NCBI RefSeq assembly: GCF_044647545.1
Contig: NZ_CP172818.1
Direction: 5' to 3' (one strand)
DNA length: 64,000 bases
Source: Escherichia coli
GTDB lineage: Bacteria; Pseudomonadota; Gammaproteobacteria; Enterobacterales; Enterobacteriaceae
The translations under genes and the position numbers were made by a program. Below are positions 23,676 to 52,909 of the stretch, one piece after another (position 1 is the first letter of the stretch; every line of letters begins with the position of its first letter). Under the pieces are notes generated by a model that was not told where the DNA came from, ran no database searches, and worked only from the letters and a program-made list of their open reading frames with translations.

Positions 23676-24950
23676 TTAAATCTGCTTTTCATACAATCGG
23701 TAACGCTTGTACGGCTCCGCCCCAATGCGTTCCAGCATGTTATTCATGCCTGTATTGGTTTCGAGGATCCATGACATCTCCAGCGCATCGATCTTCCGGC
23801 GGGCAAACGGATCGCGTAAGGCTTCAATCAATAACAGCGCAATCACCGGGCCGATGCGGCTGAACTGATACTCGTCGCGCACGCCCATCAGCGGTACTCG
23901 CGCAGTTCGCACACCGCTGACTTTCAAACGCCACAGCAATTTTGCCCAGCCGAAGGGAAAGAGCGATCCGTTCAGATCGGCAATCGCCTCGTTGATGTTC
24001 GGCAAGCCGACAATAAACGCGCAGGGTGCAGAATCAATCTCAGCGATATAGATCATATCGTCCGGCACCAGATATTTAAGTTGATCGCCCATGGTCGCGA
24101 ATTCATGTTCGGTAAACGGCACAAATCCCCAGTTGTGCTGCCAGCCAGAGTTGAAAATCTCACGCAGGATCTGCATCTCTTCGGCAAACCGCTGACGATT
24201 GATGCAGCGAATGGTCACCTTTTTGCGCACCTGATCCATCAGTTTTTTTAGCGCCGGAGAGAAAGTGAGATCGGTTCGCTGCATCCACCACGCCAGTAAA
24301 TCAATGCCTTTGTGATAACCCAGTTGTTCAATATGCGCGGCATACCACGGTTTGCCGTGTGGCATCATCGCACAGGGTGGTGTGTCAAAACCTTCAATCA
24401 GTAATCCGCTTTCCTGATTGATATTCAGGCTGAAAGGACCGCTGATCTTACTTGCACCTTGTGACTTCAACCACGCTTCCGCTGCGCCAAACAACGCGGC
24501 AAAAACCTGCGGATCATCAATGGCGTCAATCATGCCGAAATGACCGGTATCTTTGCCGTAACGCTCGCGGTGCAAGGTATCTATTTGCGCGGTAATACGC
24601 CCAACTATCTGCCCCGCTTTTTTTGCCACCCACGCCTGCCAGATGATATGGTCCGTCCCCGGATTTTTCGCAGACAAATGCTCGTTGCGTTCAATGAATA
24701 AAGGGGGTATCCAGTTTGGATCGTCGGGATAAAGTGATGACGGAAAAGCGATAAATGCCTTAAGGTCATTTTTATTAAAGACGTCGCGAAACTGAAGACA
24801 ACCGGAAATTAACTTAAAACACTCCGAACGAATTTTATAATAAAAAACGATCGCGTCATACCGAAACAATACGATTCGTAAGTTTTTTTCCATATCCTTA
24901 TCGCGTCCCTCATTCAATCGTTTTAAGCCAGGATCCCTGGTTAACGGCAA
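23676..24950 (-). CDS. yghO: YghO (GNAT-like acyltransferase fold protein); 5' end uncertain
   Basis: 424-aa ORF convergent with glcC; its start abuts the anomalous block; I recall yghO being a pseudogene interrupted by IS5 in K-12, and no IS5 is present here. Confidence 0.7.
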   Translation of the reverse strand: MPLTRDPGLKRLNEGRDKDMEKNLRIVLFRYDAIVFYYKIRSECFKLISGCLQFRDVFNKNDLKAFIAFPSSLYPDDPNWIPPLFIERNEHLSAKNPGTDHIIWQAWVAKKAGQIVGRITAQIDTLHRERYGKDTGHFGMIDAIDDPQVFAALFGAAEAWLKSQGASKISGPFSLNINQESGLLIEGFDTPPCAMMPHGKPWYAAHIEQLGYHKGIDLLAWWMQRTDLTFSPALKKLMDQVRKKVTIRCINRQRFAEEMQILREIFNSGWQHNWGFVPFTEHEFATMGDQLKYLVPDDMIYIAEIDSAPCAFIVGLPNINEAIADLNGSLFPFGWAKLLWRLKVSGVRTARVPLMGVRDEYQFSRIGPVIALLLIEALRDPFARRKIDALEMSWILETNTGMNNMLERIGAEPYKRYRLYEKQI

Positions 24951-24989
24951 TACGAACGATTCCTCACGTCCATTCGAACGATATCCCTA

Positions 24990-25500
24990 CCTCCATACAC
25001 CTCCCACACCCTTTCCGGCTCATTATCACCCACCGAAGAGGCTAATCACGTCTATAACACGACGGCATTAAATTACCCGCGACCGCATCGCTCCTCTACC
25101 ATGAAGGGACGGTCGGCTTGACCCCCCCACGCACCATAGATTACGCACCAATCACTCCCCAAGCTTAAAGACATAAAAACCGGCACCTCCCCCGCCCATG
25201 AATTTCCACGCCCTGAATGAAAGAAATCCCTGAACTGGATCTTTCTCTGCGCGTCGCGGTATTTCAGAACCCATCTCCAGAACAGACTCTATCAATTTGC
25301 CATGCCCCACATTAACTATGATCATTCAACCCACGCATACAACGAATACATTTTAACCACCCTTTTAACATACCAACCGATTCCTCCACTCCACCGAAAA
25401 TTATACGCCTACCTCCATACACCCCCACACCGTTTCCCGTCATTACACCCACCGAACACCGAACACTCTATAACACACGCATTAAATACCCCCGACCCCT
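24990..25500. repeat. C/A-rich non-coding segment with two imperfect ~100-bp direct repeats (about 24990-25090 and 25408-25500)
   Basis: CTACCTCCATACACC..CCCACACC..TTTCC..TCATTA.CACCCACCGAA...TCTATAACAC..CATTAAAT..ACCC occurs twice at roughly 80 percent identity by eye; no ORF support. Confidence 0.4.
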
Positions 25501-26024
25501 CTCCCCTTTCACCAATAATTCGGCTTTCTCCTGACCCCCCCACCACATAATTACATAATTTACTCCAATTAAAATCATAAAAAATCCGGCATTTCTCCTC
25601 TATGAATCCACTAATAAAAAATCTAATGGATCTCCCCTTACAAACACCCAAACAACCATCAATAATTTATTAAACAAACTCAACACAAAAATTCACTTTT
25701 ATGAACTCTTAACGAATATCCACACCAAACAGTAAACCCCTCAAACACGCCTATCGATTTTCCGTCAAGTAAAACTTTTGAACAGATTGAAAATCCGCAG
25801 TGAAGCATATCCGGCGCGGCGGAATTTAGTGCAGATGCTTCATCACTCCTCTCAACCTTTAACGAAATCCAATCTCAAATCAGTAAACCTCCCCGGTCAA
25901 AACGCCTATCACTTCTCAACTGCGGCAAAGCTGGAAATTATTAAATCCAGCACTGTGAGCGGTGTATGCCTTGGCGGAACAGTTTCGGTAAGCCACCTCA
26001 TCTCCGGTCCGTCTATGACTTACT

Positions 26025-26426
26025 TTGGCGACCAGTTCGCAAGCAATTGCCGCGACGGGCTGGTTAGACACCGGCGACCTCGGTTATCTGCTGGACGGTT
26101 ATCTGTATGTCACCGGACGCATTAAAGATCTGATTATTATTCGTGGCCGTAATATCTGGCCGCAGGATATTGAATATATAGCGGAACAGGAACCGGAAAT
26201 TCATTCTGGCGATGCGATTGCTTTTGTTACCGCCCAGGAAAAAATCATTTTGCAGATCCAGTGTCGGATCAGCGACGAAGAACGTCGCGGGCAGGTTTCC
26301 CACCCCGCACGCGGCCAAAATGAAAATGGAGTTACCCCTGCTAGCGATTTTCGATCTCTCCACACCACACCCTTTTACGGCCCCTCCAACCCCACCCGTG
26401 CGCAAGCGGAAACACGTAAACATTAG
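26025..26426 (+). pseudogene. Fragment of a fatty acyl-AMP ligase / adenylate-forming enzyme (C-terminal subdomain only)
   Basis: ORF translation contains WLDTGDLGYLLDGYLYVTGRIKDLIIIRGRNIWPQDIEYIAEQEPEI, matching the conserved TGDLG...TGRxKDLIIxRGxNxYPQDIE motif of FAAL/acyl-CoA synthetases; the N-terminal ~450 aa of such enzymes is absent. Confidence 0.55.
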
Positions 26427-26558
26427 CGTAGGCTTCTAGTCTCAATGTTCATGAACCCCAATCATTAATCAAACTGACACTGTGACGGTGGCGAGCGGTA
26501 CTAGCTTTAAAGGTATTAATATTATAACCTGCTCGCCCGCGGCTTTCACGTTCGCGCA

Positions 26559-26840
26559 TTGACGCGTACTGCCCGCGCTCACGTCAATGATAATCTCCCC
26601 TCGGTGGGGGGTTGGCTGCAGGATACTCATTCACTTAGCGAGCTGGTTGCCGGAGCCAGCGTAGTGGTCCATTGCGCCGGGCAAGTGCGCGGGACAAGCA
26701 CCACGCTAATCGACCAGTCTAACCTTACCAAGCACCAAAGAGAGCTGCTAGCGCCAACGGTGTCCGTTTTTTTCTACCCTTTTCTCTTTCTATCTTCAGT
26801 TCCCCCGTACCCAAACGCGCTATACTGCTCTGAGCAATGA
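26559..26840 (+). pseudogene. Possible NAD(P)-binding (SDR/epimerase-like) fragment
   Basis: Short ORF with ...LVAGASVVVHCAGQVRG... resembling a Rossmann-fold motif; weak. Confidence 0.2.
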
Positions 26841-27764
26841 CAATCAGTAATGGCGGACCAAATGACGCTGGTGGTGGACCACCTTACAGTCGGCGTTTTT
26901 CCCGCGAAAAAAGTGTTTAAACCCCGCGTTGACGGGATGAAACCCCTCTTTCTGTGACTACTTGGCGCCCTACAGACACAGCTTTCTTTGCCGGATATCA
27001 CCCTTTTTTTTCAGCAGGTGACCAATTAAGCCGGAGAAGCGCCTCAATGATACAGACGCAAAAATACAAGCAAACCTATGAATTATGCGATGGCGTCGCC
27101 GGCGGCTATGACTGGCAACGCGTACAGCAACTTGCCGCCGACGCCCGTTGCGGTTCCCTGGATGGTGTTCATTGCCGGTACTCACCGGCCTTGCGGATAT
27201 CAGTACCGCGTTGAGTCGCCTGGCAGGTAAAGAACCTATGCTCTACCCGTCGAAAATTCGTGAATTAACCCACGCTACCTTTCGTCAACTTCTAACCCTG
27301 TTGTTGAAGATAGTTAGCCTGGTCCCCGGATTACCCAGCAAGACGTATTACTTAACTTGTTTTTTGGTCTGTCACGTTTATATGTTTAATAATGTAATAA
27401 TAATAAATTGTAAAATTTCCTTTTTACAGGATTTTGTCGATATAGTGTAGTTATTCCGAAAGAGGGGGATCTCGTAAGCGCTATAGCCATTGCGTCGATG
27501 AACGTGCTGGGACTCTTTCTAATGGTTGGAGCCCGTAACGATGTTTCCATACCGATTCATATTTTGATGGCTATTAATACCCCTGCGGATGTCATAACCA
27601 CTGTGCTATCATGGGTGGCGCTTCTATCATGGGGCTATAAGGTAGATGTGCGCGACTAGCTAGAGGGCGACTGCGCTTTCGAGCCACCGCATTTTAGCCA
27701 TTACGGGTTACTCACCTGTTTATGATGTTTATTTCCGCCACCGAAGGCCGGATCGGCAATAAAA

Positions 27765-28259
27765 ATGATATCTGGCCGGGACCGATTTTTCGGTTTTGTA
27801 ACCTTTAATCATGATGCCATAGGCGAAGGTCAGGCCGCGTTAGCGGCCCAAGGTACCGGCACCACCGGTTCTCGTATGGCAAACGGCAGTTATGCGCCGC
27901 ACCTGGCGTTAGAGAAAGAGATTGCCGAGTTTTTCAATCGCCCTACCGCTATCGTTTTTTCAACCGGTTATACCGCTAATTTAGGCGTCATCAGCGCACT
28001 TGCCGACCATAACGCCGTGGTGTTACTGGATGCCGACAGCCACGCCAGTATTTATGACGCCTGTTCTCTCGGTGGCGCGGAAATTATTCGTTTCCGCCAT
28101 AACGATGCTAAAGATCTGGAACGGCGGATGGTTCGCCCCGGTGAACGGGCGAAAGAGGCGATTATCATCGTTGAGGGTATCTACAGCATGCTCGGTGACG
28201 TTGCGCCGTTAGCGGAAATTGTTGATAAACATCTGCGTGTGGGTGATTTTTGTTTCTAG
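27765..28259 (+). pseudogene. Fragment of an alpha-oxoamine synthase (BioF/KBL/serine palmitoyltransferase family, PLP-dependent)
   Basis: ORF translation GSRMANGSYAPHLALEKEIAEFFNRPTAIVFSTGYTANLGVISALADHNAVVLLDADSHASIYDACSLGGAEIIRFRHNDAKDLERRM...IIIVEGIYSMLGDVAPLAEIV matches the conserved N-terminal/middle part of AOS enzymes; the region with the catalytic lysine is missing. Confidence 0.6.
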
Positions 28260-28423
28260 TAAGGCCCTTTGGTTTGCGTTGTAGGCGGAAAGGGGGGGCG
28301 AACTGCTTAAACTTGTCGGGGTTGAGGTTATTGTGATTTTTATCGTCGGCACCTTCAGTAAGTCTCTCCCCTAGTTTCGCTTTTTTTGTCTGGTTTCGAA
28401 AGAGGTAAAAGTGGTGCGATGCC

Positions 28424-28468
28424 ACCCCCCCCCATATTTTTTTCCCCCCTCTCTTTCCCCCCCCTCGA
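28424..28468. repeat. Homopolymer-rich low-complexity tract (poly-C, poly-T)
   Basis: GCCACCCCCCCCCATATTTTTTTTCCCCCCTCTCTTTCCCCCCCC; atypical for E. coli. Confidence 0.6.
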
Positions 28469-28918
28469 CGCGCCCGTGCCGTTAACAATGAGCGCCATAC
28501 CACCAGAGCCGGGGCAAAAGCTGATGGAGAAGGATAATCACCTGTATCACTGTGTCGATATACAAGGATTGGATTTTAGGTTACATATAAGTATTAGAGT
28601 GCTGGTAATAATCATAATCAAATAGGACGGGGTACGTATCCGGCTCTAGCGTGTGTTTCTTTCGTTGATCTTTTATGTGCATCTTATCCTCCCCCCTGCC
28701 GGGCATCACGCCGTCGCGCTGTACCCTAAAGCGTGCACACTGCTGAGAGTAGACAAATCGATGCCATCATTCAGGCATTTGCTACTCTGAAGCAGTAATG
28801 TGAGCCCGCCGTGGTGTTGCGCCACGGCGGGTTTAATGTGTTGTGTGATATCACTTACACCAGGCTCAACGCCACCAGCACAAACGCTATCGGTAAACCG
28901 AGCGCGGTAACAGGTGCG

Positions 28919-29997
28919 TCACGCAAATAGCAATCCCAGATTGACCATGATTTGATAGCTGATCCAGGTGAGTAAGCCAACGATGACACCTACAGCGAGA
29001 CGGCTACCCATCCCTCGGGAGCGCGGGGCGCTAAAAATAAACTGGACAGCCAGGAAAAATAACCCCAGGGGTAGGAATGGTTTCCCCAGTTTTTCCAACA
29101 TGGCAAGGCGTTATCCGTGGTGGGTTGCCCCGTTTCCTGGCAATTATGGGAGTTATGGATTAAGTGGAGGGACGGAAAATATATTCCCCCGTCGTTATAA
29201 CTTTTCAATTTTTATACGTGTAAAGCGCTTGCCCGGGGCAATTTTATGATATTTTCCGAGTGTTTTTGCGCCTCTCCCCTATTTTTTCTTTCACTATTAC
29301 ACCATGCAGGATCCACGTTTTGTCGTCTTCAATGGTGGCACTGCGTGCATAAATGTAGGATTCGAGCGAAAGATTACCACGAGATTGTAATATCTCTCCG
29401 CCCACAGGGGCTCCCCGTGCTTGTTGCGCGTTTACCGCGACAAATTTTCTACCCCGCCCCTCCCACAGCGCATTTTGGGGGTAGTGACCTCCTCCCCCCC
29501 ACGGCGCTGGCAGTCGATTTGATTTGCAGCGCCTGTTGCTGCAATGGCGACGCCACCCACTCATCTATCGCGCCTAACGAAACAGTCCACAATATCCCGG
29601 CAACCAGCGCCACCAGTGCAATACGGAAGATAGAAAACCCAGTGCTGCGAATGGCGGTAAGCTCACTGTTTTTCGATAACTGCCCCAGGCCAACAATCCC
29701 TCCCAATAATGCGATAAACGGCGAAAGTTCGACCAGTGTACGCGGTAAGGTCATCAGCACCACCAGCACCGCCTGAGTCCAGCGATAACCGCCCGGGCTG
29801 ACATCATCCAGTTCGTTAATCAGGTTGAAGGTGGTAAAAAGCGGCAGCAATAGCCCTGCGGCGGCGGCAAAACCGAGAAAGAGATGACGGATTAAATAGC
29901 GACTGAAAACGTTCTTCGGGAAAATTTCTGGAGCAAAGAGAAGTCGCGTGCGACCAGCATCAGCAGGCCCATTAGCATGAGTCCGGGTACTAACCAC
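28919..29997 (-). pseudogene. LptF/LptG-family (YjgP/YjgQ) permease homolog, fragmented (N-terminal and C-terminal pieces in different frames)
   Basis: ORF 29449..29997 has FSRYLIRHLFLGF...LPRTLVELSPFIALLGGIVGLGQLSKNSELTAIRSTGFS, an LptG-like N-terminus; ORF 28919..29101 resembles the C-terminal TM segments; frames are broken. Confidence 0.45.
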
Positions 29998-30981
29998 AAA
30001 CCAGGAAGGATGGGGACGCGTTTGCGCCCGTTAGCGCACTCGGCAGACGTCGCCGCCATAAAAAATGGCAATAAACAGCAACGTCAGTGGCAATAACGTT
30101 GTAAAATCGCCCTTGCCGCGGTTTTACCCGACTTAATGAAATGGCCAGCAGCGCCATCAACAATGCGGTCAGGCCACGGCTTTGTCGCCATTGCAGTTCG
30201 GCATGATCGGCAGGAAAGGCGGAGCGCGCCAGCTCCGTGACCGATTTTGCTTTGCGTTTGACGTTAGGGCTTTGATCCAGCGGATTCAGATGTAATTGCA
30301 GATTACGGTAGATCTGTTCGTTGTCGTCACGCCCCTGATGATCGAGAAGATAGGCGGTGCCATTCAACAAAATGATCGTTGGTTAGTTGAGTGGTCAACC
30401 ACACCAATCGAACGGACGCGGGAAAAACGTGTGCGATCGGTAGGAGAAGGATAAATCAGTGCGTGAGTCAGTCGAGCATTTATTTTATTAACCGACCGTC
30501 AAAGGAACATTCGTTCGTTAGTTTTCGTTTGTATTTTATTTCTTCCCCAACAAGTGGAGATCCACCAGCTACGGCTACGGCTGTTCCAGCCGATAAAAAT
30601 TCTGAGAATCCCACGGCCGACGATCCAACGACGGAAGGGGGATAAAAATACTTATTGGTATTATCAGAAAATGAAGGGCGGCTTTCAACCGTCGCCCAGG
30701 GCCCCCCCCGAGAGAGAGCTGGAGGTTATTAGCGGGTAGATATCCGTCCGACCGAGAGTCCAACCGACAGATACATACCGACAGGCAAGTACATCCCCAT
30801 CGCGAGCAGTACGCTGTATGTAACGATCGCTATCCCGAACATCAAGAGCTAAGGTCCCATTTGCCGCTTCGGTCAGATAACGCTGTGCGGAGTAGCTGGC
30901 GAAAATAAAGATCAGAAAACCGACGATAATCAGCACCAGACGGCGCGTACCACGCATGATGTAGTGTTCAACCAGCTTCAT
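29990..30981 (-). pseudogene. Second LptF/LptG-family permease homolog, fragmented (tandem with the downstream copy)
   Basis: ORF 30685..30981 starts MKLVEHYIMRGTRRLVLIIVGFLIFIF (LptF-like N-terminus); ORF 29990..30370 has AELQWRQSRGLTALLMALLAISLSRVKPRQGRF matching the conserved NPRQGR region; frames are broken. Confidence 0.45.
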
Positions 30982-31011
30982 CTCACTAACACCCTCAATC
31001 CTTTGAATTTT

Positions 31012-31573
31012 TTATTCATTGATCAGTTTCTGCGCCAGCGCAATGACATGATCTACCTCTTCCGGCGTCAGGCTGCCGTCCTTTGCCCACTGAATTTGCC
31101 CGTCTTTATTCAGCACCAGAATGGTTGAACTCTGCTCCGGCAACCGCCAGGCAACGCGTCCCAGTCCATTGCCGTCAATAACGAATTGCGCCCACGGATA
31201 GCGGCGTTTATTTTTTTCGATTTTGCCAACGACAAAATAGCCAGTACCAAAGATGGCATCATCGGTGTTCACAATGGTGGTGGGCTGAAAACGATCCTGC
31301 GGAAAGTTTGCCGCTTCAACCGCTTTAATTAACAGTGGCTTTTTTTTTTTCGCGGCCACTCACCCGGCGCTATATTCGGTATAACGCGGTTTTCCCCCGC
31401 GATGTGTGCTGTTCCCCACTTTGTGGTGTGTATTGTCGTCGCTCTATTCAGAAGGATCGCCCCGTTCCTGGGTATTAAACGGGGGTAACCGTTTTGCCAG
31501 TGACAAAATTGTGTGCCTGCACACCCTGGGCTAAGAGCATGATAATCAGCGCAATAATCAAACGAGATGACAT
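31012..31573 (-). pseudogene. YtfJ-family periplasmic protein homolog, frameshifted near a poly-T/poly-A tract
   Basis: C-terminal ORF 31012..31359 has ...TTIVNTDDAIFGTGYFV...YPWAQFVIDGNGL...LVLNKDGQIQWAKDGSLTPEEV matching E. coli YtfJ as I recall it; a signal-peptide-like N-terminus MSSRLIIALIIMLLAQGVQAHNF begins at 31573 in another frame; total span fits a ~185-aa protein. Confidence 0.55.
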
Positions 31574-32675
31574 CATTGCTCCGGTTATAGCGGAAAACGC
31601 GAAATCAGCAGCTCTAAGCGCTGGCGAATATCGCTATCCAGCGCCACCGGTGCATTATACGACCGGGCGGTTTTCCTAATAATCCCCACCATTGTGGCCG
31701 TGTTTTCCCCCATCAGGCCATTAATGGCGGCGAGGAAGCGGGAAATCTTTTATTGCTTTTGTTTATCAAGCGATCTTAAGGTGTCGTAATAAGAAACCTG
31801 CTGACTGATGATTTTTCGCACATCATGAAATTCCCTGCCGGTTAGTCGCGGTTTGGCAATTATCTTTTCATGTGAATTATTTTTTTTCGATAAAAATAAA
31901 AAAACTTCCGATTTTTGAATTGGTAAGGCTTAATGAAAATTCCACCAAGGACAAGACCGAAAAGTTTAATAAAACCCTAAACAATTTCCCTTAAACCAAC
32001 CCATTATTTTCTTTACCTTTAGGAAAACCTCCTGGAAACGGCCCCAAAAAAACGTCCTTTTTCCGGTAAAAAAATCCCCTCTTATTTGATAGTAAATACA
32101 GCCAATGCACAAAATTCAGGCGCTTTCAGCTCTCTTTTATGATTTTATTGTTCATCCGCAGTAAGATTCACCTCATTGCCTTTTTTCTGTTTTCATAGTA
32201 AACGCACCAACTCATTGAGATTAATGAGACTGAGTTAGAAGTGTAGCCAGTACTTGTAATTAATAATATGATTGGGTAAATATAATGTAATGCTAGACGC
32301 CACACTAAACTGACCAGCGCCGCCATCATATTATTCTACTCAACCGAAACAAAGATACCTCCCCTCGCGCGAAAAATGTAATATTTTCTTTATGATTACT
32401 ATTCCGCTCCGTTATCAAGATAAAGAAAGGAATGGCGCTGAAAAAATGCCGTCAAGGTTGGAGAGAACGAGAGCACCAGATATAGACAACCGCCATCGAA
32501 AAAAGCAAATCCCACCCCGACACGCAAACAACTACAAACAGATGAACAGCAATACGAAACTATACCGATGATGTCATGTTTCGCCACGATTGAGGCGATG
32601 GTTTCCCACGAAAAACCCTTTTTCCCCATCATACAATACTCCTGTGGGAAAAGCGCGCTGTTCCCCGCATCGAAA

Positions 32676-33791
32676 TCAAAGACTCCGGGAACCACATCGA
32701 AATACAATTGCGCCCAGCATCACCTGAATCAGGTCATACGCTTCGAGATACTTAACGCCAAACACCAGCGCAATAAGCGGCTTGCCGACGATCAACACCG
32801 CGAGCGCCACCAGAATACCGATTCCGCCCGCCAGTAAACCTGACTTCACGCCTAACAACCACGGTCTGGTGGTGCGCGGATCTAAACGCATCACCTCTGG
32901 GTAAAAACTTTTGCCCAGTAAACCCGCTGGCGTTCCGGCGGCGTCGAAGAATGTCATGGCGATTTTAAATAACCCGGCGGCAGCGGGTCCTAACACGATC
33001 CCCACCAGCACTGTGCTGCACGAGTTACGCGCCGACCAGATGGAGTGGGCAATGTTGGTTGACCAGACAAAACTCCACGCGCCTTTAATGTGTCGGGCAG
33101 ACTCAAACAGATTCAATTTGAAGGCGTTATGGATATTTCTGCGGCGTAATTCGCGCGCGGCAAACCACCAGTACATGGTGCCGCCAACCAGATTCGACAC
33201 GTACCAGGCAATAACAAAACCCGCAAAACCAAAGTCAAAATACCAGGCTACGACGCTCCCCGCTGCGCGCAGAAAAGGTTTCGTCGCTTGCTGTACAGCA
33301 ATTAGATCGAAGCGATCTACCGCACGCAGAATGCCGGTCGGCGTGGAGGAAGCCATTGAAGGAATGAGCGTGCAATACAGCGCTGCCAGCCAAAAGCTTT
33401 GGTCATCCAGACCTAATGAATGGGAAAGAAAAGGGAGTAAGGCAATGCCGCCGACAATCGCCACCGCGCCGCTGACGATATCCAGCGAGAAGGAAAATGA
33501 GACGACATTGCGAAATTGCTGCGGATTATTGTTGGTCAAGGCTGGCGTTCCGTACTGCACCACCAACTGCCATGTCTGAAACTTAATAAAATCGCTGATC
33601 GACTTGGCGTACGATTGCACAATCACCAGTACGCCAAACATGGCGGGCGTCATCCCTTTACCGGCACACGAGAGCGCCAACAGACCCAGTAAAGCGCTCA
33701 CGACATTACTGGAGCCTAACCAGGCGCTATTGCGAATAATGGTGCGAAACGCGCCATCTGCAAACCAATGTTTGATGTTAAAACCCGCCAA
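32676..33791 (-). CDS. yghQ: Polysaccharide-transporter/flippase-like inner membrane protein YghQ; 3' end possibly disturbed
   Basis: 371-aa polytopic membrane ORF; its C-terminus borders the anomalous block, and a further out-of-frame ORF follows at 32399..32707. Confidence 0.85.
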   Translation of the reverse strand: MAGFNIKHWFADGAFRTIIRNSAWLGSSNVVSALLGLLALSCAGKGMTPAMFGVLVIVQSYAKSISDFIKFQTWQLVVQYGTPALTNNNPQQFRNVVSFSFSLDIVSGAVAIVGGIALLPFLSHSLGLDDQSFWLAALYCTLIPSMASSTPTGILRAVDRFDLIAVQQATKPFLRAAGSVVAWYFDFGFAGFVIAWYVSNLVGGTMYWWFAARELRRRNIHNAFKLNLFESARHIKGAWSFVWSTNIAHSIWSARNSCSTVLVGIVLGPAAAGLFKIAMTFFDAAGTPAGLLGKSFYPEVMRLDPRTTRPWLLGVKSGLLAGGIGILVALAVLIVGKPLIALVFGVKYLEAYDLIQVMLGAIVFRCGSRSL

Positions 33792-40977: not shown

Positions 40978-41093
40978 GGCAACATTGGCACTTATCCTAT
41001 TACCATAAACATTTTAACTAACCCCAAAACCACATTTCATTAACTTTTTCCCTCCCCAATTTTTTTTTTTTCCTAAAAAACACCCCCCTTCCC

Positions 41094-41150
<57 letters not shown>

Positions 41151-41169
41151 ATTTTCGTGCAGCGAGTCC

Positions 41170-41520
41170 CATTTCCCCCGATAAGACCGGTATTTCTTCA
41201 GGCCACAGGAGACTTCAGGCCAAGCTGCTGCATCAGTTTTCGCACCGTTTTGCCACTGAACTTGAGACCTCTTTTCTGAAGTTCACAGTCGATCCGCCGG
41301 TACCCATAACATCCCCGGTGTTCATGGAAGATGGAGGGGATGGGCTGTTTCACATCACAATACTTTTCTTAGCCTTCTGCAGTGACAGCTGATAGTACAG
41401 CGTGCTTCTGGCCAGCCCTGCGAAGCCTTTAACAGGTCAGACTGGCAGTGTCCGCACCTCAGGTTCTGGATGACTTTCGCTTTTTCTCCAGCTCCAGGCG
41501 CTTTTTTCCCAGGAGATCCT
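41170..41520 (-). mobile_element. IS3-family transposase remnant (OrfB N-terminal region, frameshifted and truncated)
   Basis: Minus-strand translations give ...GLARSTLYYQLSLQKAKKSIVM and EHRGCYGYRRIDCELQKRGLKFSGKTVRKLMQQLGL, matching the conserved N-terminal motifs of IS3-family OrfB; no DDE catalytic domain and no inverted repeats follow. Confidence 0.5.
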
Positions 41521-42037
41521 CCTGCATGCCTTCCAGATATGCATTTCCTGCGCAAAAATACCCCCCTCCTTCTTCTCTCTTTCCGCCCTCTGTTTCCCCT
41601 CCTTTTCTCGGGTATCAACAAAACGGTCATTCTTTTCTCCCTCCCGCGCCTAAAAAAGCCCTCACCACCAGTTTGTGTCGCCTTTTTCCTGTTTTCCGCC
41701 GTGTGGTGGCCGGGAATGTTAAAGCCGGCCGGCCGCGGGGGAGAGACAGAGAAAATGCGAGAAAACAAAAAAAAACACGCAAAGTCTCTCTAGAAGAAAA
41801 TAGCCGCCCCCGTTCCTGCAATCCAGGAGCAGAAGAGCGAAAAAAAAAAAAAGAATAAAGGGGGGAGGGGGTGGTATAAAAAAGTTAAAATTGTTGTGGT
41901 GAAAAAAGGAGGCCAGACGGGCCGGTGAAAAAATTCTGTGGGGAAGACTATTTTAAATAAAGGTTTTGTAAAAAACACCACCTGATGTGATATGATATTC
42001 ACTACAAGTGTGGGGTGGAGTTTACGCGCCCTAATCA

Positions 42038-48583: not shown

Positions 48584-48771
48584 TTATAGTTATTCCGTTG
48601 CGAAGACCTGGCATATATTTTGCCTCAATCGCAAAATCAATAATGCGATCGATGCGCCATTTACCACACATTTATTATGGTTATCGATATCATGATACTG
48701 CGGCGGGGCACTAAAACGAAGGGAAGAAGCATTAGTGTAATTAATTAAAGCAAGATAATACGTATGTTTGA
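48584..48771 (-). promoter_or_regulatory. hyb operon promoter region (upstream of hybO)
   Basis: AT-rich intergenic region upstream of the first hyb gene; individual sites not resolved. Confidence 0.35.
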
Positions 48772-49059
48772 TCAATTTTCTAGGCGATAACCGGCCATAA
48801 AAAAGCGCAACGTAGAACAGGAATTATTCTCACGAAAGAAATCCATTACCATCTCTTTATCCAGTCCATAACGGCGCGTCAGAATACCCGCTTCCCAGGC
48901 GCTAAGCTGGCGATCTCCGGTCTTTTCGTACATCCGGTGTGAGTAGCCTAATACAAAACCGCGTTTATAATCGGCACAGAATTTTGTCACATTAACCGCA
49001 CTGTCGGCATGCGTTGCTTTTAATCCCGCCATTAAGCCTTTACCAAAATGGTTATTCAT
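48772..49059 (-). CDS. yghW: Uncharacterized protein YghW (DUF2623), 95 aa
   Basis: ORF track 95 aa in the expected position next to hybO. Confidence 0.85.
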
Positions 49060-49177
49060 CGTTCACCTCATTCGCTATATATTTTCATATATAGCGATAT
49101 TTTAGGCAAAGAACGACTTTTGCGCACGCTATTTTTTCATGCTTGTTTAAGACGTAATCCCGTAAGAGATAAACCTA

Positions 49178-50065
49178 TCAGGAGAGATATTTATCGAACC
49201 ATTTCAGCGTCCTTTGCCAGGCAAGATCGGCGGCAGATTTGTCATAACGGGGCGTGGAATCATTATGGAATCCGTGATTAACCCCCGGATAGATATACGC
49301 CTCATAGACCTTATTATTGGCTTTCAACGCCGCCTCGTAAGCAGGCCAGCCCTCGTTGATTCGGGTGTCCAGTTCCGCGTAGTGCAACAGTAAAGGCGCT
49401 TCAATCTTCGCCACATCGGCAGTGGGTGCCTGACGACCATAAAACGGCACCGCGCAGGCCAGTTCCGGGTAAGCGACCGCTGCCGCGTTCGATACGCCAC
49501 CGCCATAGCAAAATCCGGTAATACCCACTTTGCCTGTCGCTTGCGGATAGCGTTGCATAAACTCAATTGCGGCAAAGAAATCATTCATCAGTTTGGTTGG
49601 ATCAACCTGCTGTTGCAGCTCACGACCTTTATCGTCATTACCCAGATAACCTCCAACGGAACTTAAGCCGTCAGGTGCCAGGGCGATATACCCCGCCTTC
49701 GCCACTCGCCGTGCCACATCTTCGATATACGGATTCAGTCCACGATTCTCATGCACCACCACCACGGCTGGCGTTTTGCCGCTCATCTTTGCGGGCTTCA
49801 CCAGATAACCCCGTACCTCGCCGTGACCATTTGGCGAAGGATACGTGATGTACTCAGCAACAATCTCCGGGTCGGTAAACTCTACCTGAGTCGCCAGCGC
49901 ATAATTTGGCTTGAGCAAATCAAACAACGCTAATGCCGTCATCCCGCCCACCGCATACTTCGCCGCAAGGTTGAGGAACTCACGTTTCGAGATTTTCCCG
50001 TGAGCGTAATAGTCGTAGTAATCCAGCAACTCTTGTGGGAAATCTTTGGCGGTTAAACGCGGCAT
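49178..50065 (-). CDS. yghX: Dienelactone hydrolase-family protein with Tat-like N-terminus (yghX locus), apparently intact
   Basis: ORF track 49178..50104; start taken at the Met giving MPRLTAKDFPQELLDYY..., preceded by a GAGGAG ribosome-binding site. Confidence 0.8.
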   Translation of the reverse strand: MPRLTAKDFPQELLDYYDYYAHGKISKREFLNLAAKYAVGGMTALALFDLLKPNYALATQVEFTDPEIVAEYITYPSPNGHGEVRGYLVKPAKMSGKTPAVVVVHENRGLNPYIEDVARRVAKAGYIALAPDGLSSVGGYLGNDDKGRELQQQVDPTKLMNDFFAAIEFMQRYPQATGKVGITGFCYGGGVSNAAAVAYPELACAVPFYGRQAPTADVAKIEAPLLLHYAELDTRINEGWPAYEAALKANNKVYEAYIYPGVNHGFHNDSTPRYDKSAADLAWQRTLKWFDKYLS

Positions 50066-50221
50066 CGTTGCACTCCTCAACTGGTGTTTTTTTAAGCAAA
50101 GCATAAGCGCGTGTTTTTGCCCAGTTTTTCGTCACTCTGTGAGCCAGACTACGGGATACGCGCAGGCGAATCGCTAAACTAGAAACATTGTTTCGAAATT
50201 GAACGGTGGAAAGGAGAGGTC

Positions 50222-51244
50222 ATGGTCTGGTTAGCGAATCCCGAACGTTACGGGCAGATGCAGTACCGCTATTGCGGAAAAAGTGGTTTGCGCCTGCCCG
50301 CGTTATCGCTCGGTTTATGGCACAATTTCGGTCACGTTAACGCGCTGGAATCACAGCGTGCGATCCTGCGTAAAGCGTTTGATTTGGGCATTACGCACTT
50401 TGATTTAGCCAATAATTACGGGCCGCCTCCAGGAAGCGCAGAAGAGAACTTTGGTCGCCTGCTGCGCGAGGATTTTGCCGCTTATCGCGATGAACTGATT
50501 ATCTCTACCAAGGCTGGCTACGATATGTGGCCCGGCCCTTACGGCTCTGGCGGTTCACGTAAATACCTGCTCGCCAGCCTCGACCAAAGCCTGAAGCGTA
50601 TGGGGCTTGAGTATGTCGATATCTTTTACTCTCATCGCGTCGATGAAAATACGCCGATGGAAGAAACCGCCTCTGCGCTGGCTCATGCGGTACAAAGCGG
50701 TAAGGCGCTGTATGTCGGGATCTCCTCTTACTCGCCAGAGCGGACGCAAAAAATGGTCGAGTTACTGCGCGAGTGGAAAATTCCGCTGTTAATTCATCAA
50801 CCTTCGTACAATTTACTGAACCGCTGGGTGGATAAAAGCGGCCTGCTGAATACCCTGCAACATAACGGCGTGGGCTGCATTGCCTTTACTCCTCTGGCTC
50901 AGGGATTGCTGACCGGAAAATATCTCAACGGCATTCCGCAAGATTCACGGATGCATCGTGAAGGGAATAAAGTTCGTGGTCTGACGCCGAAAATGCTCAC
51001 CGAAGCCAACCTCAACAGCCTGCGCTTATTGAATGAAATGGCACAGCAGCGTGGACAATCAATGGCGCAAATGGCGTTAAGCTGGTTGCTGAAAGATGAG
51101 CGAGTGACGTCGGTATTGATTGGTGCCAGCCGCGCGGAGCAACTTGAGGAGAACGTGCAGGCGCTGAATAATCTGACATTTAGCACCGAGGAGCTGGCGC
51201 AGATTGATCAGCATATCGCCGATGGCGAGCTGAATCTGTGGTAG
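50222..51244 (+). CDS. gpr: L-glyceraldehyde 3-phosphate reductase (aldo-keto reductase), 340 aa as encoded here
   Basis: ORF track 340 aa MVWLANPERYGQMQYRYCGKSGL...; terminates at TAG 51242-51244 with in-frame ASSDK-TGA immediately downstream. Confidence 0.9.
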   Translation: MVWLANPERYGQMQYRYCGKSGLRLPALSLGLWHNFGHVNALESQRAILRKAFDLGITHFDLANNYGPPPGSAEENFGRLLREDFAAYRDELIISTKAGYDMWPGPYGSGGSRKYLLASLDQSLKRMGLEYVDIFYSHRVDENTPMEETASALAHAVQSGKALYVGISSYSPERTQKMVELLREWKIPLLIHQPSYNLLNRWVDKSGLLNTLQHNGVGCIAFTPLAQGLLTGKYLNGIPQDSRMHREGNKVRGLTPKMLTEANLNSLRLLNEMAQQRGQSMAQMALSWLLKDERVTSVLIGASRAEQLEENVQALNNLTFSTEELAQIDQHIADGELNLW

Positions 51245-51986: not shown

Positions 51987-52871
51987 ATGTCTCATTTAAA
52001 AGACCCGACCACGCAGTATTACACTGGTGAATATCCCAAACAGAAACAACCGACGCCAGGCATCCAGGCGAAGATGACACCGGTGCCAGATTGCGGCGAG
52101 AAAACCTATGTTGGTAGCGGTCGCCTGAAGGATCGTAAAGCACTGGTGACAGGGGGCGATTCCGGAATCGGTCGCGCTGCCGCCATCGCTTACGCGCGTG
52201 AAGGGGCTGACGTGGCGATCAGTTATCTTCCCGTGGAAGAAGAAGACGCTCAGGATGTGAAAAAGATCATTGAAGAATGCGGACGCAAAGCCGTTCTGCT
52301 GCCAGGCGATTTAAGCGATGAGAAATTTGCCCGTTCGCTGGTTCACGAAGCGCATAAGGCCTTAGGCGGGCTGGATATTATGGCGCTGGTCGCCGGGAAA
52401 CAGGTTGCCATTCCTGATATTGCTGACCTCACCAGCGAACAGTTTCAAAAGACCTTTGCCATTAACGTTTTCGCGCTGTTCTGGCTAACCCAGGAAGCGA
52501 TCCCCCTGCTACCGAAAGGTGCAAGTATTATCACCACTTCGTCAATCCAGGCATACCAGCCAAGCCCGCATTTACTGGACTATGCGGCTACGAAGGCGGC
52601 GATTCTGAACTACAGCCGAGGCCTGGCAAAACAGGTCGCGGAGAAAGGTATTCGGGTGAATATTGTTGCGCCTGGCCCGATCTGGACAGCACTGCAAATT
52701 TCCGGCGGGCAAACGCAGGATAAGATCCCGCAGTTTGGTCAGCAAACGCCGATGAAACGTGCGGGACAACCGGCGGAACTGGCCCCTGTATATGTTTATC
52801 TGGCAAGTCAGGAATCGAGCTACGTCACCGCAGAAGTGCACGGCGTGTGCGGCGGCGAGCATTTAGGTTAA
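51987..52871 (+). CDS. yghA: NADP-dependent short-chain dehydrogenase/reductase YghA, 294 aa
   Basis: ORF track 294 aa with [10 protein letters not shown] Rossmann motif. Confidence 0.93.
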
Positions 52872-52877
52872 AAAAAT

Positions 52878-52909
52878 GCCCGGTTGTGAAAAGCAACCGG
52901 GCTTTTATT
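52878..52909. terminator. Bidirectional rho-independent terminator between convergent yghA and exbD
   Basis: GCCCGGTTG-tgaaaag-CAACCGGGC stem-loop flanked by A-run and T-run. Confidence 0.65.

Follow-up and report, generated by a model that had tools for sequence, protein, structure and literature searches.

An intact yghX in an ST648-type Escherichia coli backbone encodes a dienelactone-hydrolase-family protein with a Tat-like N-terminus

Among the known systems closest to the protein considered here is ClcD of Pseudomonas knackmussii (PDB 1DIN; EC 3.1.1.45; Pfam PF01738), a dienelactone hydrolase (DLH) encoded in a chlorocatechol pathway operon. The orthologue from E. coli O157:H7 Sakai is known from a 2.0 Å crystal structure (PDB 4ZV9), deposited as an 'uncharacterized protein'; the purified E. 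coli enzyme had no promiscuous phosphotriesterase activity in the sole published panel that we found. In K-12 MG1655 (NC_000913.3), yghX (b4658) is annotated as a pseudogene overlapping yqhI (b4755), which encodes a 47-aa protein that has been detected in K-12 in tagged form. The papers we found that mention yghX mostly treat the K-12 pseudogene as an integration site, and none of them addresses the function of the gene. For protein export through the Tat pathway, a review reports that a single R-to-K change in the twin-arginine motif usually only slows export, and that TtrB (tetrathionate reductase) is the only known native cargo with a KR motif (PMC6708511). A literature search combining dienelactone hydrolase with twin-arginine returned genome papers only, and none described export of a DLH-family protein.

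We analyzed a 64,000-nucleotide stretch of E. coli DNA (hereafter, the window) in which an initial annotation, made by reading the sequence, had noted an uninterrupted frame of about 295 aa at the yghX locus and had described the same gene as a frameshifted pseudogene in MG1655. Our overall reading, which we hold with high confidence, is that the window carries an ordinary, intact chromosomal yghX in an ST648-type backbone, that the gene encodes a DLH-family enzyme with a Tat-like N-terminus, and that the K-12 pseudogene probably arose in two steps. This feature is already known and annotated, a normal gene in a non-K-12 backbone. The one mildly novel thread is that its N-terminus may be a Tat signal of KR type that occurs naturally, and that its conserved n-region may dock.

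Reading frame, locus and backbone

The ORF list and translation place one open frame on the minus strand of 49178-50104, comprising 308 codons if translation is taken to begin with the ATG at 50104. Another ATG in the same frame, at 50063-50065, gives a product of 295 aa that ends with TGA at 49178-49180. The true start of yghX is the ATG at 50065, and the coding sequence is 49178-50065 on the minus strand, as supported by the ORF list and translation, the NCBIfam and Pfam matches described below, and RefSeq. A direct reading of the sequence finds a ribosome-binding site, GAGGAG, at 50073-50078 (minus strand), separated from this ATG by a 7-nt spacer; on inspection, no comparable site was seen upstream of the ATG at 50104. 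The same start is used by RefSeq on identical DNA (CDS WP_022646121.1) and by the K-12 small protein YqhI, and all 120 close homologues begin at this position (MPRLT/MTRLT). That the true product might instead be the 308-aa protein is suggested by its being the longest ORF, and we consider this very improbable given the placement of GAGGAG, the shared start of homologues, RefSeq and the detected YqhI, and the NCBIfam YghX model, which begins at residue 16 of the 308-aa form; the in-frame extension at 50066-50104 (minus strand) is probably not translated. The initial annotation had thus given the coordinates of the longest ORF and the length of the real protein; since both are present, its observation is confirmed, together with its good ribosome-binding site, and we add only the strand, which it had left unstated. 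It might also be argued that the intactness of the frame is a sequencing or assembly artefact, as other parts of the window look anomalous (24.8-32.7 kb and others, described below). We regard this as ruled out, with a residual probability close to nil: the 1,301 bp from 49000 to 50300 are 100% identical to all 40 complete, independently sequenced E. coli genomes among the matches listed, and the undeleted allele at codon 37, the site of one of the two K-12 deletions, occurs in at least 3,490 genomes.

The gene lies between yghW (48772-49059, minus strand) and gpr (50222-51244, plus strand), the order annotated in both MG1655 and ST648, and this position, together with the match to the NCBIfam YghX family (NF041440), bears out its naming as yghX. 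Among the 40 matching genomes are ST648 strains of human, dog, bird and water origin, and in all 40 the locus is annotated yghW - yghX - gpr. Over a longer range, the window is colinear with MG1655 3,105,293-3,158,000 at 96.4-98.3% identity with three structural differences, in agreement with the earlier suspicion that the backbone is not identical to that of MG1655. Between about 33 and 61 kb it hardly differs from the ST648 genome NZ_CP008697, with 0-1 mismatch per kb. These matches point to a backbone of ST648 type and not of K-12 type. A promoter and terminator scan of 48600-50400 gave chance-level counts (3 vs 2.4 and 3 vs 2.1 expected), with nothing usable for yghX expression. In the spacer that separates yghX from yghW, immediately ahead of the yghW start, we observed a perfect 11-bp inverted repeat at 49072-49097, TCGCTATATAT-TTTC-ATATATAGCGA, whose arms are conserved in MG1655 and whose loop differs there; it may serve as an operator or form a terminator-like hairpin.

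Several other parts of the window drew our attention during these comparisons. A 7.9-kb segment at 24779-32722 occupies the position of the MG1655 IS5 at the yghO/yghQ junction and corresponds to an ST648 island encoding a fatty acyl-AMP ligase, an epimerase, an ACP, spt, lptG/lptF paralogues and YtfJ. Its identity to that island reaches only about 80-84%, and each kb contains 10-27 gap openings, yet the flanks of the segment are essentially identical to ST648. The segment contains no ORF longer than 182 aa and has no match above 83.6% among 5,426 genomes, and it looks heavily decayed or otherwise anomalous. Abrupt divergence from ST648 also occurs in two shorter segments. The one at 40980-42030 shows 125 mismatches and 20 gaps; here the ST648 genome carries an IS3 element between yghU and hybG, and MG1655 has only a 113-bp spacer. 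The other, at 61300-62020, shows 36 mismatches, 27 gaps and a G+C content of only 25%; it is close to two hypothetical genes and lies beyond the MG1655 sequence compared. In the window, yghA (51987-52871) is an unbroken ORF of 294 aa, and it is annotated 'frameshifted' (886 bp) in the otherwise near-identical ST648 genome NZ_CP008697; the alignment of this kilobase with NZ_CP008697 has two gaps. At 52903, in the yghA-exbD spacer, the window lacks 239 bp that are present in MG1655 (3,150,578-3,150,816).

Fold and predicted catalytic residues

The NCBIfam model for YghX family hydrolases (NF041440) matched the protein along its full length (model positions 1-292 of 292) with 582.9 bits against a cut-off of 460 (E=1e-175), and the Pfam DLH family (PF01738) matched across its whole profile (1-217 of 217) with 163.8 bits against a gathering score of 21 (E=5.8e-48); these E values place the ORF far beyond chance. 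The Pfam match spans residues 97-307 of the 308-aa ORF and locates the DLH (alpha/beta-hydrolase) domain at aa 84-294 of the 295-aa product (49184-49816, minus strand). Over aa 59-294, the window protein is 98% identical to 4ZV9. An AlphaFold2 model, for which 35 aligned sequences served as input, reached a mean pLDDT of 95.8 and an overall pTM of 0.93, and it superposed on 4ZV9 with an rmsd of 0.5 Å (TM 0.98) and on Pseudomonas DLH 1DIN with an rmsd of 2.2 Å. Identity to 4ZV9 and the superpositions support a DLH-type alpha/beta-hydrolase fold; with both family models matched at full length, the earlier reading of the locus as encoding an intact DLH-family protein holds.

Candidate catalytic residues were assigned with a HMMER alignment to the C123S variant of Pseudomonas DLH (4U2C). 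We take the DLH triad to consist of positions 123, 171 and 202 in the established 1DIN numbering. Aligned with position 123 is Cys186 (codon at 49508-49510), the predicted nucleophile, which lies in a G-F-C-Y-G-G motif; Asp233 (49367-49369), the predicted triad acid, aligns with the DLH Asp in 'GGQDHF' (position 171), and His264 (49274-49276), the predicted triad base, with the DLH His in 'GAGHSF' (position 202), all three codons being on the minus strand. Cys is found at position 186 in 108 of 130 representatives, and in our alignment A2 the Asp233 column is invariant and His264 is at least 90% conserved. A Cys186-His264-Asp233 triad is therefore a likely prediction for YghX as judged from aligned sequences, and through it the enzyme would perform covalent catalysis on an ester, a lactone or a thioester. 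The neighbouring genes (the hyb operon, yghW and gpr) include no catabolic or chlorocatechol pathway genes.

One residue of the window allele stands out in the homologue alignments. Codon 141 (CTG, 49643-49645, minus strand) encodes Leu, a lineage-specific substitution at a position where Pro is found in all 120 close homologues, in 114 of 136 distant representatives and in the frame-repaired K-12 sequence, and where none of these has Leu. It is a missense change in the G-G-Y-P-G-N-D-D loop, produced by a T in the window at 49644 where MG1655 has C. With Leu at so conserved a Pro, an open frame is no proof of full activity; the Pseudomonas DLH residue aligned with position 141 is itself Leu, however, and Leu141 need not be harmful.

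Lesions of the K-12 allele and their frequencies

We aligned 49100-50230 of the window (1.13 kb) to MG1655 and found 24 substitutions and two internal indels, so that the two sequences are not identical over 49178-50104. One indel is a 2-bp deletion in codon 37 (TAT, 49955-49957, minus strand), where K-12 lacks 49956-49957; the other falls in codon 157 (ACC, 49595-49597, minus strand), where K-12 is without one C (49595/49596). Neither deletion is present in the window. With -2 bp and -1 bp placed by alignment and b4658 annotated as a pseudogene, the statement in the initial annotation that yghX is frameshifted in MG1655 proved accurate. The 2-bp deletion shifts the frame into the sequence of YqhI, which consists of the first 36 aa of YghX followed by 11 frameshifted residues, CGRRDDGISVV, exactly as published. 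As the deletions sum to 3 bp, the original frame resumes in K-12 after codon 157. Detection of YqhI further implies that in K-12 both the promoter and the start site of yghX are active. We also noted that the Pfam 'YqhI-like' family PF23678 (36 positions) and YqhI coincide exactly with the stretch of YghX that precedes the frameshift; this 'family' is the n-region and (K/R)R-x-F-L motif of YghX-type hydrolases and not an independent small protein.

To count these alleles, we compared 32-34-nt probes centred on each deletion site, one for either allele, with 5,426 complete E. coli genomes, using a megablast word size that keeps each probe from matching the other allele. At codon 37, at least 3,490 genomes carry the undeleted allele and 1,505 (~28%) the 2-bp deletion, the remaining ~430 being matched by neither probe, presumably owing to nearby SNPs. 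At codon 157, 4,219 genomes are undeleted and 1,198 (~22%) have the 1-bp deletion. Intact yghX is therefore the majority state in E. coli, an ordinary gene already named in RefSeq; full-length orthologues that are 85-92% identical occur in Citrobacter, Enterobacter, Kosakonia, Leclercia and Pseudescherichia. Being the majority state, intactness does not mark an unusual strain and shows only that the window does not come from the K-12-like subgroup.

A synthetic hybrid-haplotype probe, K-12-like in background and bearing the 2-bp deletion but no deletion in codon 157, returned 100% matches, which establishes that a haplotype with the 2-bp deletion only exists; one example is ATCC 8739, where yghX (886 bp) is flagged 'frameshifted'. 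All six genomes sampled among those with the 2-bp deletion also carried the 1-bp deletion (yghX 885 bp). We infer from the counts and these seven sampled genomes that the simplest history has the 2-bp deletion first and the 1-bp deletion later, within that clade. The K-12 pseudogene would then be the product of two steps within one subgroup of E. coli: the deletion in codon 37, probably the first inactivating lesion, would have truncated YghX to the 47-aa YqhI stub, and the deletion in codon 157, probably the second, would have followed in a subset of the 2-bp-deletion strains. The pseudogene is in any case not peculiar to K-12, which matters for the many engineering studies in which yghX serves as a 'neutral' integration site. 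More generally, the locus is one example of how K-12 pseudogenes are often intact in other strains, and it shows that the window is not K-12.

The N-terminal segment and the functional state of the allele

By its Pfam match and its conservation, the segment ahead of the crystallized domain (aa 1-58; 49892-50065, minus strand) appears to have the layout of a Tat signal with Lys-Arg in place of Arg-Arg. It is made up of an n-region (Pfam 'YqhI-like' PF23678, aa 1-36, 75.7 bits), the motif S26-K27-R28-E-F-L31, a moderately hydrophobic stretch and a c-region with P53...A56-L-A58. Codons 26-31 (S-K-R-E-F-L; 49973-49990, minus strand) stand where relatives have their twin-arginine motif, as found when we aligned the best 150 representatives of 50%-identity clusters. 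At K27-R28, 85 of 114 such representatives (75%) have RR and 14 have KR; Phe30 is shared by 93 of 108 and Leu31 by 76 of 108. Every one of 120 enterobacterial homologues has K-R at the motif, and the consecutive arginines of S/T-R-R-x-F-L-K are absent from the window protein. Towards the end of the segment, Pro53 (76/106), Ala56 (82/106) and Ala or Gly at position 58 (92/106) are widely kept, and the YghX c-region presents K52, P53 and A56-L-A58, that is, a basic residue and an A-x-A. Three distant relatives have a lipobox (LAAC, IAAC or VAAC) in place of AxA, followed by a long P/A/T-rich linker, a combination that is a hallmark of exported lipoproteins. The maximal 11-residue hydropathy of the h-region is 1.85, compared with 1.99 for the Tat signal of HybO, which is encoded in the same window. 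The 4ZV9 construct starts at aa 59/60, as if the depositors had cut off a predicted signal peptide.

Other properties of this segment are less typical of a signal. The curated Tat models TIGR01409 and PF10518 gave no match to the YghX N-terminus at E<=10; with TIGR01409 (cut-off 16.7), an RR-bearing relative (P0122) scored 15.7 bits and the HybO control 29.2 bits. The uncharged core spans only 12 residues, YAVGGMTALALF, and the n-region, 25 residues long, shows more conservation than is usual in a signal peptide (D18, Y20, H22, G23). AlphaFold2 models aa 1-60 as three short helices (11-21, 27-37 and 44-51) with pLDDT 87-94. Flexible signal peptides are usually not predicted with such high confidence, and the model suggests that the segment docks on the core and is not a free signal peptide. 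The Tat-like N-terminus of the initial annotation thus stands in part: its motif, the RR of most relatives and the AxA speak for it, while the curated models leave it unmatched and the structure prediction places the segment confidently.

Tat export with cleavage after Ala58 is, as a sequence-based and unproven proposal, the most likely single reading of these data. YghX would fold in the cytoplasm, be exported by Tat and be cleaved after Ala58 to yield a periplasmic enzyme. Its serious rival is that aa 1-58 stay in place as a helical cap, that the enzyme is cytoplasmic (or membrane-associated) and that K-R/R-R has another role, which we consider somewhat unlikely, though well short of dismissal. 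The three confidently predicted helices (pLDDT 87-94, pTM 0.93), the retention of the n-region D-x-Y-x-H-G in distant relatives as a Pfam family of its own (PF23678), the lack of a match to curated Tat models and the short uncharged core would all fit such a cap. Against it, the motif, h-region, Pro and AxA are conserved in register, the lipobox and linker of three relatives make sense only for exported proteins, and the catalytic domain crystallizes well without aa 1-58. A different doubt concerns function, namely that yghX is open in frame but dispensable, and is drifting to loss in the lineage of the window, so that it is intact in form and not in function. Its appeal lies in the ~28% of complete genomes that are frameshifted, with a second lesion gained at no apparent cost, and in P141L at a position where 120 of 120 close and 114 of 136 distant relatives have Pro. 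We nevertheless judge drift improbable, since neither the triad nor any other invariant residue is altered, the aligned DLH residue is itself Leu, all 40 genomes among the matches listed, from varied hosts and countries, share a 100% identical allele, and full-length orthologues remain 85-92% identical across genera, which indicates purifying selection.

Returning to Tat export as the preferred reading, one can go a step further and suppose, more speculatively, that the YghX of enterobacteria is a cysteine hydrolase that reaches the periplasm through the Tat pathway by means of a natural KR signal, with the n-region docked on the folded enzyme before export. This combined proposal is tentative and on balance doubtful. 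If true, it would make YghX the second native KR cargo after TtrB, and the docked n-region could, for example, keep the hydrolase silent in the cytoplasm. E. coli Tat work centres on K-12, in which the gene is broken, and this would explain why YghX has been overlooked. On its sequence, YghX is a reasonable candidate for a natural KR-type Tat substrate.

Set beside known systems, YghX has the same fold as ClcD and an aligned Cys-His-Asp triad, but the two proteins are only ~25% identical; ClcD is without an N-terminal extension, whereas YghX has its 58-aa signal-like one, and yghX is without the pathway neighbours that surround ClcD in its operon. With Tat signals, including the KR signal of TtrB, YghX shares S-K-R-x-F-L, a moderate h-region and a basic residue before A-x-A; it differs from them in a long (25 residues), conserved n-region and in falling below the TIGR01409 and PF10518 thresholds. 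Compared with 4ZV9 and the repaired K-12 sequence, the window allele has Leu141 for Pro and Tyr229 for Phe, and otherwise differs in nothing of substance. The K-12 locus itself is orthologous, with the same neighbours, start codon and ribosome-binding site and an identical first 36 residues, but K-12 makes only the 47-aa YqhI stub of YghX, whereas the frame in the window is intact.
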